62,420 nt of DNA from positions 1-62,420 of the forward strand of contig JABIBU010000008.1 in NCBI GenBank assembly GCA_018652595.1, given 5' to 3'. Shown piece by piece: positions 8,303 to 12,695 of the stretch. Below the pieces are notes generated by a model that saw only the letters and a program-made list of their open reading frames with translations, did not search any database and had not been told where the DNA came from. Each line of letters begins with the position of its first letter. Positions within the stretch are counted from its first letter, which is position 1. This stretch comes from Candidatus Magasanikiibacteriota bacterium (GTDB lineage Bacteria > Patescibacteriota > Patescibacteriia > Magasanikbacterales > UBA922). The position numbers were made by a program, and so were the translations under genes.

Positions 8303-10690
8303 ATGAGTAAAACCCTCGTAATAGTAGAGTCCCCTACAAAAGCCAAGACAATTAGCAAATTCCTAGGAAAAGACTTCATGGTAGAGTCTTCTTTTGGGCA
8401 TCTGAGAGACTTGCCAAAGAGCAAGATGGGCATAGATATTGAGGGCGGTACTTTTGAACCGGATTATGTCACTTCTAAGGATCGTGCAAGTCAAGTGAAA
8501 AAATTGAAAGATCTTGCCAAAAAGGCTGACACCATCATATTTGCTACTGATGAAGATAGAGAAGGAGAAGCCATTTCCTGGCATTTGGCATATATTCTAA
8601 AAGTAGACCCAGCGAAGGCTAAGAGGATTGTTTTTCATGAAATTACCAAACATGCTATTGAAGAGGCTTTGAAAAATCCACGTCATATTGACCAAAAGCT
8701 AGTAGATGCTCAGCAAGCTCGCAGAGTATTAGACAGGCTTGTTGGTTATGAATTGTCACCGTTCTTATGGAAAAAGGTTGCTCGAGGTTTATCAGCTGGA
8801 CGTGTTCAGTCTGTAGCTGTGCGATTGACAGTAGAACGCGAACGAGAAAGACAAGCTTTCAAATCTGATGAATATTGGACTGTTGAAGGTACTTTTAATA
8901 AAGAACATGATTTCACAGGCAAGCTTCATTCTATTGATAGTAAAAAATTAGATAAGCTAGAAATAGGCAATGAAAAACAAGTAAACGAAATTGTAAAAGA
9001 TCTAGATGGTGCTGAGTACAAAATTCACAAAATAGAAAAAAAGGAAACCAAGCGTACTCCCACAGCTCCTTTTACTACTTCTACTTTGCAACAGCAATCT
9101 AGTCACAAACTGGGCTATAGCGCCAAGCAGACTATGAGACTAGCTCAGCAACTTTATGAAGGTATAAAAGCTGGTGACGATGATGCCACTGGTCTTATCA
9201 CCTATATGCGTACAGACTCGGTAAACCTGTCTGAAAAATTTGTAAACGAAACAAATGAATTTTTGAAAACAAGTTTTGGCGATAAATATATTCTAGACAA
9301 AGTAAGAACTTTTAAAAATAAATCAAAAGGTGCCCAAGAAGCTCACGAGGCAATCAGACCAACTGACCCTGCTAAGACTCCAGAGTCTCTAGAAGCTCAC
9401 CTGGATCCACAACAATTGAAATTGTACTCTTTGATCTGGAAACGAGCAGTTGCTACACAAATGACTGAAGCAAGACTTAATAAAACAAACTTTGATATTA
9501 CAGCGAAGAAGTATTTATTCCGTGCGACAGGACAGAGCATGGTTTTTGATGGCTGGTTAAAGCTTTATCCTGAGCAAGTGAAGGAAGAGATGCTTCCAGA
9601 GCTAAAGGAAGGTGAAACAGTTGATTGCAAAGAAATAAAACCAGAACAACACTTTACCGAGCCACCTGCTAGATACAGCGATGCTACACTTGTAAAAGCT
9701 CTGGAAGAGCATGGTATTGGTCGTCCTTCTACCTATGCCCCGACTATTGGGACCATTGAAGCGCGTGGTTATGTAGAGCGCGATGACAACAAGCGACTAA
9801 AACCACTTGATATTGCTATGGTAGTGACTGATTTGCTAGTAAATCATGTTTCACAAATTGCTGACTATGAATTTACAGCCATGATGGAAGATAACTTGGA
9901 TCAAATTGCTGAAGGCAAAGAGGATTGGAAACCAATTATCTCAACATTTTATCATCCATTTCATGAAAATCTAGAAAGAAAAACAGAGGAACTAACAAAA
10001 GAAGATACAGTGGCAATGAGAGAAATTGGAACCGATCCAACAACAGGAAAACCAATCTACTCTCGCATTGGACGCTACGGACCATTTGTTCAGCTTGGAT
10101 CAAAGGATGATGAAGAAAAACCAAAGTTTGCCTCTCTAGCAAAAGGACAGAGTGTAGAAACTATTACAATGGAAGAAGCCTTACATCTTCTTACTTTGCC
10201 AAAAATTGTTGGTAATGACGAGGAAGGTAATGATATCACAGTAGACATCGGACGATTTGGTCCTTATGTAAAATTGAAGAGTAAATATTACTCTATCAAA
10301 GAAAAAGATCCATATGAGGTAGATTTGAAAGATGCCTTACAAATAATTGCTGACAAAAAGCAAGAAGAAGCTAATAAAATTATTCAGGAGTGGGAAGGAT
10401 CTGATATTCAAGTTTTGAACGGACGCTATGGACCGTACATAACTAACGGCACAAAGAATGCAAAAATTCCAAAAGACAAAAAACCAGAAGAACTAACAAA
10501 GGAAGAGTGTGAAAAACTAATCGAAGAGGCACCCGAAAAAAGATACGGAAGAAAAAAGGCCGTAAAGAAAGCCCCTGAGAAAGCAGAGAAACCAAAAAAG
10601 AAGACTGCTAAAAAGCCAGCGAAAAAACCAAAGAAGAAAGCAGTGAAGAAGACAGTCAAAAAGATAGAAAAGAAGACAGAAGAAAGCTAA
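8303..10690 (+). CDS. topA: DNA topoisomerase I with Topo-C repeats and Lys-rich tail
   Basis: LVIVESPTKAKTI, DEDREGE, SAGRVQS, ITYMRTDS (catalytic Y), GIGRPSTY; three GR(Y/F)GP(F/Y) repeats instead of Zn ribbons. Confidence 0.98.
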   Translation: MSKTLVIVESPTKAKTISKFLGKDFMVESSFGHLRDLPKSKMGIDIEGGTFEPDYVTSKDRASQVKKLKDLAKKADTIIFATDEDREGEAISWHLAYILKVDPAKAKRIVFHEITKHAIEEALKNPRHIDQKLVDAQQARRVLDRLVGYELSPFLWKKVARGLSAGRVQSVAVRLTVERERERQAFKSDEYWTVEGTFNKEHDFTGKLHSIDSKKLDKLEIGNEKQVNEIVKDLDGAEYKIHKIEKKETKRTPTAPFTTSTLQQQSSHKLGYSAKQTMRLAQQLYEGIKAGDDDATGLITYMRTDSVNLSEKFVNETNEFLKTSFGDKYILDKVRTFKNKSKGAQEAHEAIRPTDPAKTPESLEAHLDPQQLKLYSLIWKRAVATQMTEARLNKTNFDITAKKYLFRATGQSMVFDGWLKLYPEQVKEEMLPELKEGETVDCKEIKPEQHFTEPPARYSDATLVKALEEHGIGRPSTYAPTIGTIEARGYVERDDNKRLKPLDIAMVVTDLLVNHVSQIADYEFTAMMEDNLDQIAEGKEDWKPIISTFYHPFHENLERKTEELTKEDTVAMREIGTDPTTGKPIYSRIGRYGPFVQLGSKDDEEKPKFASLAKGQSVETITMEEALHLLTLPKIVGNDEEGNDITVDIGRFGPYVKLKSKYYSIKEKDPYEVDLKDALQIIADKKQEEANKIIQEWEGSDIQVLNGRYGPYITNGTKNAKIPKDKKPEELTKEECEKLIEEAPEKRYGRKKAVKKAPEKAEKPKKKTAKKPAKKPKKKAVKKTVKKIEKKTEES

Positions 10691-10728: not shown

Positions 10729-10844
10729 GTCATTGCGAGGAATCCTGATGAAATACAGGATAACGCAGCAATCTCAGCCATCAACACATTAGTCGTTCAA
10801 AGCATGGGATTGCTTCGTCGTGTATTCTCACTTCTCGCAATGAC
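10729..10844. repeat. GTCATTGCGAG element, copy 2
   Basis: GTCATTGCGAGG...CTCGCAATGAC; internal homology to 192-307. Confidence 0.85.
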
Positions 10845-10854
10845 ACTACTGCAA

Positions 10855-10951
10855 TAAAAAAACCATCCTTCTCAGGATAGTCTCTCTAGACAGCAGGGAG
10901 GAGGTAACCTCAATGCCATTGGTAATATAAAGGCTCTCGACCCGCTGTCAT
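10855..10951 (-). ncRNA. Candidate small RNA or 13-codon leaderless ORF (RNA1)
   Basis: Promoter TTGATT(10984-10979)-17-TATAGT(10961-10956); 5' GACAGCGGG pairs with CCCTGCTGTC; terminator ACTATCCT/AGGATGGT plus U-tract. Confidence 0.4.
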
Positions 10952-11011
10952 ATAAACTATATAGCAAAGATACTGAAAAATCAAGGTTTTTGCTCAAATT
11001 TGGCTAAAACA

Positions 11012-11081
11012 AAAGAAAAACTCCCGTCTTACGACTGGAGTTTTCCTTAGGCCTTGAAAGTACCTAACCTTTATATTACCT
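11012..11081 (-). ncRNA. Candidate small RNA (RNA2)
   Basis: Consensus promoter TTGACA(11115-11110)-17-TGn-TATAAT(11092-11087), then about 70 nt ending in terminator GAAAACTCC..GGAGTTTTTC; no ATG. Confidence 0.5.
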
Positions 11082-11219
11082 ACTGTATTATAGCACATTT
11101 TGGCACTTTTGTCAAGATCTCTTAGTAAATGTCCCTCCCCTACGATAGGAGGGATTAAAAAACTTGCATTTTTACGCAAAAAATGGGAGAATAAGTAGTA
11201 CAAATAATATCATCCAAAT

Positions 11220-12695
11220 ATGGGCAAAAAACCAACAATTGAATCCCTTGTAAAGAAAGTCGGCAACTACGCACCAGATGCTGATTTGGATTTACTAAAA
11301 CTAGCATATGACTTTGCTGATTCTGCCCATAAGGGACAAAAAAGAAAATCCGGCGAACCATACATTATCCACCCACTAGCAACCGCCCATATACTGGCTG
11401 ATCTTAGAATTGATGTTGCCATTGTGATGGCGGCACTCCTGCACGATGTCCCAGAAGACACCAAGGTTACATTGGAAGAAGTAGAAAAAAACTTTGGCCC
11501 AGAAGTTGCTAGCATGGTAAAAGGTATTACCAAACTAGGAAAACTAAAATATCGCGGGGTAGAAAGATATATTGAAAATCTAAGAAAGATGTTTGTCGCC
11601 ATGGCCGAAGACATTCGTGTTATGATTTTGAAATTTGCTGACCGTATTCACAATCTGAGCACACTAGATGCCCTACCACCACAAAAGCGTTATCGTATTG
11701 CACTCGAGAGTCTAGAAATTTACGCCCCAATTGCTGGTAGACTTGGTATGGATGAATTTAAAGGGCGCTTGGAAGATCTATCATTTCAATACGTTTATCC
11801 AAAAGAATTTCAAAAAGCAAAAAAGATTAGGGACGAAAGACTAGAAGGAAAAGAAGTATTTATAGAAAATATTCAAAAAACTGCCAAAAAGGAATTGGAG
11901 GCAGCTGGAGTAAAAATTAACTTTATCCACGGCAGAAAAAAACGCCTCTACAGCTTTCACATGAAGCTGCAACGCAAAAATAATGAAACTGCAAAAATAT
12001 ATGACATGGTGGCTTTGCGTATTATAGTCCCTACTATTGCCGACTGCTATGCTGCCTTAGGAATTCTACATACCATTTGGAAGCCGATGAAAGGAAGAAT
12101 TAAAGACTATATTTCTCAGCCAAAGCCAAATGGTTATCAATCTCTGCACACTACTGTATTATCTGATACAGGAGAAATTGTAGAATTTCAAATTCGTACT
12201 ACTGACATGCACGAAGAAGCCGAGTTTGGTGCGGCTGCCCACTGGCACTATGATGAGACTGGAGCAAAGCGACCAGCCAAAAAAATCCAATGGGTAAAAG
12301 AACTGGCTGAAATACAAAAAGATGTTTTGAATAAATTGTCAGACTTGGAAGAAATAAAAGTAGACTTCCTCCAATCCCGTATTTTCGTCTTCACCCCAAA
12401 GGGCGATGTGATAGACCTACCAGAAAATGCTACACCAGTAGACTTTGCTTATCACATCCACACAGAGGTAGGTAATAAATGCAATGGAGCTATAGTAAAC
12501 GAACAAATGACCAGCTTAGACACAGGACTAAAAAATGGCGACGTAGTAGAAATTCTAACCGATAAAAATCGCAAAGGCCCCTCCAGAGACTGGCTCAAGT
12601 TTGTAAAAACCCACACCGCCAAAGGACATATTAATAATTACTTGAAGAGTCAAGGTGGTTTGCTTCCGGCTTGGTTTAAGAAAAATAAAGAATAA
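11220..12695 (+). CDS. rel: RelA/SpoT homolog (HD + SYNTH + TGS, no ACT domain)
   Basis: RKSGEPYI.HP, LLHDVPED, KFADRIHN, RIKDY (RxKD), PKPNGYQSLHT, EFQIRT, TGS motif TPVDFAY.IHTEVG. Confidence 0.93.
   Translation: MGKKPTIESLVKKVGNYAPDADLDLLKLAYDFADSAHKGQKRKSGEPYIIHPLATAHILADLRIDVAIVMAALLHDVPEDTKVTLEEVEKNFGPEVASMVKGITKLGKLKYRGVERYIENLRKMFVAMAEDIRVMILKFADRIHNLSTLDALPPQKRYRIALESLEIYAPIAGRLGMDEFKGRLEDLSFQYVYPKEFQKAKKIRDERLEGKEVFIENIQKTAKKELEAAGVKINFIHGRKKRLYSFHMKLQRKNNETAKIYDMVALRIIVPTIADCYAALGILHTIWKPMKGRIKDYISQPKPNGYQSLHTTVLSDTGEIVEFQIRTTDMHEEAEFGAAAHWHYDETGAKRPAKKIQWVKELAEIQKDVLNKLSDLEEIKVDFLQSRIFVFTPKGDVIDLPENATPVDFAYHIHTEVGNKCNGAIVNEQMTSLDTGLKNGDVVEILTDKNRKGPSRDWLKFVKTHTAKGHINNYLKSQGGLLPAWFKKNKE

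Follow-up and report, generated by a model that had tools for sequence, protein, structure and literature searches.

The closest described counterparts of the locus reported here are pairs of a small RNA and a sponge, or anti-sRNA, such as SroC-GcvB (PMC4474525) and the sponge RNAs of Vibrio and Caulobacter (PMC9732341, PMC12559287). In such pairs, two independently made small RNAs meet, and one neutralises or remodels the other via short conserved complementarity; known sponges are usually derived from mRNAs or tRNA spacers and act on sRNAs with large regulons. The present locus resembles them in the short conserved complementarity between two predicted small RNAs, each with a promoter and a terminator of its own. 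It differs in that its two genes are adjacent and co-inherited, that the pairing sequence drifts and is restored by compensatory changes, and that neither an mRNA target for either RNA nor Hfq was detected in the host genome.

Type I toxin-antitoxin loci with separate antitoxin RNAs, among them tisB/istR-1, zorO/orzO and shoB/ohsC, have neighbouring units, a short (~13-20 nt) antisense 5' pairing region and a stronger antisense promoter, all of which recur here; the target at this locus, however, is a 60-nt non-coding rod with no conserved ORF. CopA/CopT and RNAI/RNAII are antisense systems of plasmid copy control in which an exposed loop or a single-stranded tail makes the first contact and the duplex then grows as intramolecular stems give way. 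The RNAs described below likewise have hairpins built on one stem sequence, CCUU/RAGG and AAGG/CCUU, between which strands could be exchanged, but they are trans-encoded, non-overlapping and chromosomal, with no replication or mRNA target.

We analysed a 62,420-nucleotide stretch (the window) of a Candidatus Magasanikiibacteriota genome whose assembly comprises 27 contigs and 965 kb at 37% G+C, with an estimated completeness of 95%. A literature search returned no paper on regulatory or non-coding RNAs in Magasanikbacteria, and the RNA pair found between topA and rel is apparently undescribed and apparently restricted to one order of Patescibacteria.

Two predicted transcription units between topA and rel

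The gap between topA and rel contains two minus-strand units, RNA1 and RNA2 (Table 1). The initial annotation had assigned to RNA2 a perfect promoter and to RNA1 a TTGATT-17-TATAGT promoter, an end-to-end fold and, as for RNA2, a terminator; all of these assignments held. The terminator scan listed neither terminator, yet both are evident in the computed folds.

Table 1. Coordinates of the topA-rel locus within the window.
Feature	Position	Strand	Basis or remarks
topA	8303-10690	+	Pfam Toprim, Topoisom_bac, C-terminal repeats
RNA1 intrinsic terminator, CUAUCCU GAGA AGGAUGG then U7	10855..10880	-	fold
Predicted RNA1: rod of 60 nt (stems P1, P2 and P3 with a conserved apical loop) and terminator	10856..10949	-	fold
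RNA1 site II, GGCAUUGAGG, nearly invariant	10908..10917	-	GAGG closes P3 with CCUU; candidate partner of RNA2 block
RNA1 site I, CCUUUAUAUUACC: 5' strand of P3 and 5' half of loop	10921..10933	-	pairs with RNA2 5' end
RNA1 promoter, TTGATT-17-TATAGT	10956..10984	-	9/12 matches
RNA2 intrinsic terminator: long A/U-flanked hairpin and U run	11011..11048	-	fold
RNA2 transcript (predicted), ~70 nt: 5' pairing segment, small hairpin, conserved block, terminator	11011..11081	-	fold; ends placed by promoter and terminator
RNA2 conserved block, CUUUCAAGGCC, consensus CYUNAANGCC; candidate strand of helix II	11050..11060	-	80% paired with RNA1 GGCAUURAGG
RNA2 5' segment, GGUAAUAUAAAGG: RNA2 strand of intermolecular helix I	11068..11080	-	pairing over 43 genomes
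RNA2 promoter, TTGACA-17-TATAAT, TG before -10 (extended)	11087..11115	-	12/12 matches
rel (compact)	11220-12695	+	domains HD, RelA_SpoT and TGS only

The two sets of promoters differ consistently among orthologues. The -35 box is TTGACA in all 48 RNA2 copies and the spacer is 17 nt long in 47 of them, and the RNA1 promoters, with 7-11 of 12 matches, are weaker than those of RNA2. The RNA2 pairing segment, GU(R)AU, begins 6-9 nt past the -10 box in every orthologue and therefore represents the very 5' end of RNA2; in the host genome the predicted start lies at ~11081/11080 and the transcript would open with the segment given in Table 1. At 37 of 49 RNA1 loci P1 begins 7 nt after the end of the -10 box, a placement of its first base that puts the transcription start on that base (G10949 here, with the predicted 3' end at ~10856). 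Downstream, 44 of the 49 RNA1 orthologues have a T run of at least 5 within 60 nt, and the RNA1 terminator hairpins are unrelated in sequence between genera. The RNA2 terminator hairpin has a z score of -4.33 in the fold and is conserved, with compensatory changes at 3 pairs. The signatures of both transcription units are thus retained in other genomes, and transcription of the two units is probable from this DNA evidence.

The extended promoter consensus of the lineage, TTGACAAAA...AAAATGTGCTATAAT, occurs ~20 times in the host genome. The 29-mer of the RNA2 promoter, TTGACAAAAGTGCYAAAATGTGCTATAAT, recurs ~20 times genome-wide with 1-6 mismatches, for example at C1:51807(+), C3:13315(-), C25:91335(-) and window 32590-32562(-). 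Three one-mismatch copies head very short terminated transcripts (~45 nt), and downstream of one of these three come a second promoter and a small GC-rich gene that has a strong SD. A search for partner RNAs of the 5' ends of the short transcripts under near-identical RNA2-type promoters found none.

Several features of the surroundings deserve mention in their own right. Rel has only 491 aa, without the C-terminal ribosome-sensing domains of long RSH enzymes, and rel and RNA2 are divergently transcribed in most genomes. Between the RNA1 and topA terminators lies a ~116-bp element (window 10729-10844) with perfect inverted repeat ends, GTCATTGCGAG / CTCGCAATGAC; because the host genome and its two congeners contain dozens of copies with 70-95% identity, the element appears to be a miniature transposable one. 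A GC-rich hairpin, GTCCCTCCCCTACGATAGGAGGGAT, is located between the RNA2 promoter and rel (window ~11125-11150). A similar hairpin is found between RNA2 and RNA1 in one congener (L011) and is absent from the other, and this may be a small mobile hairpin.

RNA1 forms a conserved rod

In the computed structure of RNA1, GACAGCGGG pairs with CCCUGCUGUC end to end, followed by the terminator hairpin and U7 (-33.5 kcal/mol, z = -3.96). Phylogenetic comparison establishes this fold. All 8 pairs of P1 show compensatory changes and 99.5% of P1 is paired; the 3 pairs of P2 are also all compensatory, and P3 is formed by CCUU with RAGG. Overall, the rod is 94% paired with compensatory changes in 12 of 17 pairs, no shuffle out of 500 was as good, and slid controls reached 37-53%. 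The apical loop carries the nearly invariant AUYACC-N3-4-GGCAUU, which is followed by RAGG. RNA2 has a small hairpin of its own, AAGG-loop-CCU(U), which is located upstream of the conserved block CYUNAANGCC and is weak, with 71.5% paired.

RNA1 and RNA2 co-evolve as pairing partners

The sequence GGTAATATAAAGG at 11080-11068(-) finds its exact 13-nt complement in RNA1 at 10933-10921(-). At up to 1 mismatch the window contains no match besides these two, against a chance expectation of 0.15, and they are the sole exact copies in the whole 965-kb genome. A repeat finder also listed the same 13-nt inverted repeat, which extends to 15 pairs with one G-U. The 13 Watson-Crick pairs and their extension, on which the initial annotation had based its proposal of an sRNA/anti-sRNA pair, are therefore exact and unique to this site in the genome, and the proposal itself fits the data: two promoter-to-terminator units whose mutual complementarity is kept across orthologues. 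The same annotation had named covariation in related genomes as one check, and loss of the 13-nt complementarity there as the mark of a decayed repeat; the opposite was found, with compensatory changes keeping the pairing.

Helix I joins nucleotides 1-13 of RNA2 with CCUU-NNN-AUYACC of RNA1. Across 43 genomes, 92.7% of cells are paired, compared with 29-50% in slid controls. Double-sided changes occur in 75 cells vs 22 in shuffles, none of 500 shuffles reached the observed value, and 6 of the 13 pairs carry compensatory changes. One pair is either A-U (15) or G-C (28) with no exception, and others appear as U-A, C-G, A-U and G-C. Cognate combinations form 11.4 of 12 Watson-Crick pairs vs 9.0 of 12 for non-cognate ones, and the cognate seed/site pairs were better than permuted pairs in 20000 of 20000 trials (0/20000 permutations as good). 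In predicted dimer energy the advantage of cognate combinations is only modest (-4.4 kcal/mol vs -1.4 kcal/mol for non-cognate dimers). The substitution pattern shows that helix I has co-evolved. In one genome (G012) RNA2 is inverted relative to RNA1 and the genes are divergent, so that the DNA repeat turns into a direct one, and complementarity at the RNA level is kept.

The RNA1 CCUU covaries both with RNA1 RAGG and with RNA2 AAGG. In a family where CCUU has become CCCA, the RNA1 partner (UGGG) and the RNA2 segment (UGGG) have both changed with it. As P3 and helix I use the same CCUU, they are mutually exclusive.

A second contact, helix II, would join RNA2 CYUNAANGCC with RNA1 GGCAUURAGG. 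It is 80% paired with 15 double-change cells vs 5.4 in shuffles, figures to be read with the caveat that both strands are nearly invariant and that one position is usually mismatched. One of its pairs appears as C-G (14), U-A (9) and A-U (1), but is unpaired in 16 cells, and helices I and II together require an unusual side-by-side geometry. Its covariation is weak to moderate, and on these alignments helix II is plausible, weakly supported and not established.

The central positions of helix I drift, which indicates that the main partner of each RNA is the other and that neither strand serves many other targets; with each RNA mainly devoted to the other, a classical multi-target sRNA is unlikely. 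Consistent with this, a genome-wide scan of this genome for other targets of either pairing sequence, or for matches to the complement of GGCAUUGAGG, gave nothing beyond chance, and no complementarity to the rel leader was seen by eye.

Distribution and gene context of the module

Comparison with 40 relatives by BLAST recovered the two units, their order unchanged, in two congeners and in four further genera. Covariance models were then built from seven sequences each. With models R1 and R3, RNA1 was detected in 44 of the 107 family genomes, which represent 33 of 56 genera, and in 76 of the 240 genomes available for the order, always as a single copy; the numbers of genomes are lower bounds given the strict filters. 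With model R2, RNA2 was found to adjoin RNA1 at 29 of 30 family loci, and at the remaining locus a contig end intervenes; RNA2 is also found at most loci of four other families, with a spacing between the two of 24 to >900 nt. Copies of RNA2 missed by the model were recovered with the complement of each genome's own RNA1 site; these lie 410-920 nt upstream, each immediately behind a TTGACA-17-TAnnnT promoter and set apart from RNA1 by additional DNA.

Public records with the RNA1 core motif are mostly from Candidatus Magasanikbacteria, Magasanikiibacteriota or Patescibacteria. Beyond the order, a class-wide sample of 401 genomes yielded matches from the order itself only, plus one doubtful RNA1-like sequence without RNA2, and no copy of the module was found on viral contigs.

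The arrangement of topA, the RNA1 and RNA2 genes on the opposite strand, and rel is kept at 27 of 30 loci. In fourteen genomes of this family or order that had scored negative, neither RNA turned up near rel when the filters were removed, and in six of them the topA-rel gap is ~25 to ~250 nt, too short for either RNA gene, and represents an empty site. Where the module has been relocated, both RNAs are found together with no common protein gene; at one such locus the neighbours are a DNA methylase and YidC, at another they are a tRNA and ClpP. The empty sites in relatives and the relocation of both RNAs without a protein gene mark the module as self-contained and dispensable, an accessory element whose two genes stay adjacent; it looks mostly vertically inherited, with losses.

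In genus g103 of another family, a ~300-nt promoter-led stretch with its own terminator is situated between RNA2 and RNA1 (L094 of genome G202, ~1180-1500; also L090 and L104). This insert had no Rfam match and its fold was no better than that of shuffles; a third RNA is conceivable here, as is a small gene.

Comparison with known RNA families

The initial annotation had recognised no Rfam family. Indeed, neither the window nor any of 20 orthologous loci matched an Rfam 15 family at the gathering score, and relaxing the limit to E = 10 brought up only chance matches of the terminator type, none over the RNA1 core.

Specific resemblances were also considered and set aside. A tmRNA or tRNA-like reading of RNA1 fails on A3-U70 instead of G3:U70, the lack of a T arm and the simple three-stem rod. 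A normal tmRNA is located beside smpB on contig C5:37741-38143(-), where the Rfam tmRNA model scores 134.8 bits; ARAGORN reported no tmRNA in the host genome, and thus the tmRNA of this lineage escapes that program. ARAGORN listed 41 tRNA genes in the host genome and no tRNA-Cys, the gene for which may be atypical or fall within the ~5% that the assembly lacks. A tracrRNA:crRNA pair is not in keeping with flanks of topA and rel at 27 of 30 loci and with a region that has no repeat array. The RNA2 seed as a mimic of the 16S 530 loop was rejected because only GGUAAUA is common to the two and most lineages have GUGAU. Pairing of RNA1 GAGAGCCUU with 16S helix 44 (-30.5 kcal/mol, with 0.7% of shuffles as good) was discarded since it uses the lineage-variable strand of P2.

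Discussion

Comparative sequence analysis confirms that the topA-rel gap harbours a real, well-supported and self-contained module of two separate genes for predicted small non-coding RNAs whose products would pair with each other. For its function, the reading that we favour, at a level of confidence that divides evenly for and against, is that RNA2 serves as a dedicated antisense RNA by which RNA1 is opened and masked. The RNA2 promoter is much stronger than that of RNA1, and the first ~13 nt of RNA2 are complementary to the 5' strand of P3 and the 5' half of the loop. Pairing would initiate in the RNA1 loop through the single-stranded 5' end of RNA2, which would then invade P3 and displace its RAGG strand in competition for the same CCUU. 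The freed GGCAUURAGG might be exposed or, should helix II form, captured and masked by the RNA2 block CYUNAANGCC. The RNA1:RNA2 duplex could be handed to RNase III for degradation; the host genome encodes RNase III, and neither Hfq nor CsrA was found in it. In such a scheme the RNA2:RNA1 ratio would set the amount of free RNA1, with its conserved loop exposed and available to a partner.

Several considerations weigh against this reading. The search found no downstream target or protein partner of RNA1, including its invariant loop, and the cognate dimer energies are only modestly better than the non-cognate ones. Moreover, the near-total mutual devotion of the two RNAs fits a constitutive bipartite RNA or an RNA-only addiction system equally well.

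In the latter case, which we consider improbable though well short of negligible, free RNA1 would be harmful or active via its exposed loop and RNA2 would be the neutralising antidote, in a toxin-antitoxin-like system with no protein. RNA2 would be strongly transcribed, less structured and presumably shorter-lived. The patchy occurrence of the module among the genera of the family, the clean empty topA-rel sites of relatives and the joint relocation of both RNAs without a common protein gene all speak for such a role, as does the invariably stronger antisense promoter, which matches antitoxin kinetics. Against it stand the same chromosomal site in several families and the single copy per genome, which indicate vertical descent with losses and not mobility, and the absence of copies on viral contigs.

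A doubtful prospect of the same rank is that RNA1 and RNA2 constitute one bimolecular structure, such as an RNP scaffold, a split ribozyme or an aptamer, in which helices I and II would be architectural. Most of the conserved non-terminator sequence of both RNAs is indeed spent on each other, the helix sequence drifts with pairing kept, as in structural RNAs, and the invariant nucleotides (GU.AU/AU.AC and GGCAUU) flank the helices in the manner of a junction or binding core. However, neither an Rfam family nor a known ribozyme core fits, many close relatives do without the module, no protein gene travels with it, and unequal promoter strengths would be unexpected in a 1:1 complex.

The initial annotation had also raised a type I toxin-antitoxin-like pair. 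In such a system RNA1 would be the mRNA of a tiny toxic peptide, either the possible leaderless ORF MTAGREPLYYQWH or the plus-strand MPLVI, and RNA2 would be the antisense antitoxin. The layout resembles that of trans-encoded type I pairs, with a separate antisense RNA complementary to its target and covariation between the two, and an ATG overlaps the RNA1 start in this genus only. In the other genera checked, by contrast, RNA1 starts with GUAGCG, GUGGCG or GCAGG and has neither a start codon nor a conserved frame; the peptide lacks hydrophobic character, and substitutions follow the paired stems and not codons. The individual elements fared alike. The leaderless ORF is present here and its frame is absent from other genera, and the GGAGGAGG-ATG mini-frame that encodes MPLVI exists here and is not conserved in orthologues. 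The anti-SD-like run, ACCUCCUCC, is also real in this sequence, but it is the 3' strand of P2, which covaries and changes freely among lineages (UCUCUC, CUUCUUCC and others), so that an anti-SD function was rejected. The two 11-nt palindromes of this genome lose their symmetry in orthologues, and ACCTCCTCC, present here, is not kept either. Because none of these elements (small ORFs, anti-SD-like run, palindromes) is conserved beyond this genus, the type I reading was rejected as highly improbable.

Practically negligible is the alternative of an inverted repeat in the DNA that arose by chance or is decaying, or of a site that works at the DNA level (for example a cruciform, or a palindrome bound by protein), amid fortuitous promoter- and terminator-like sequences: AT-rich intergenic DNA is rich in promoter-like matches (5 in the promoter region scan vs 4.0 expected), but the exact 13-mer pair is unexpected by chance, compensatory substitutions maintain complementarity over ~45 genomes, and one arm always lies at the predicted +1 of RNA2, which, together with the inverted arrangement in G012, excludes a DNA-level palindrome.

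Whichever role RNA2 plays, whether the dedicated antisense RNA that we favour or another, the locus offers phylogenetic proof of RNA-RNA pairing in trans that is unusually clean. Drift is open to the pairing sequence, and hence the partnership itself is the selected feature. With ~130 nt of RNA, the locus is also a compact, testable system for antisense control without classical chaperones. More speculatively, and with rather little confidence, we suggest that Patescibacteria possess a class of protein-free RNA-RNA modules, each composed of a stable structured RNA and a private, strongly expressed and co-evolving antisense RNA, that would act in addiction, as toxin and antidote, or as switches via hairpin strand exchange, and of which this locus would be a new, non-tRNA-like family. 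If this is true, the topA-rel locus may indicate a wider class of protein-free RNA modules in ultra-small bacteria.
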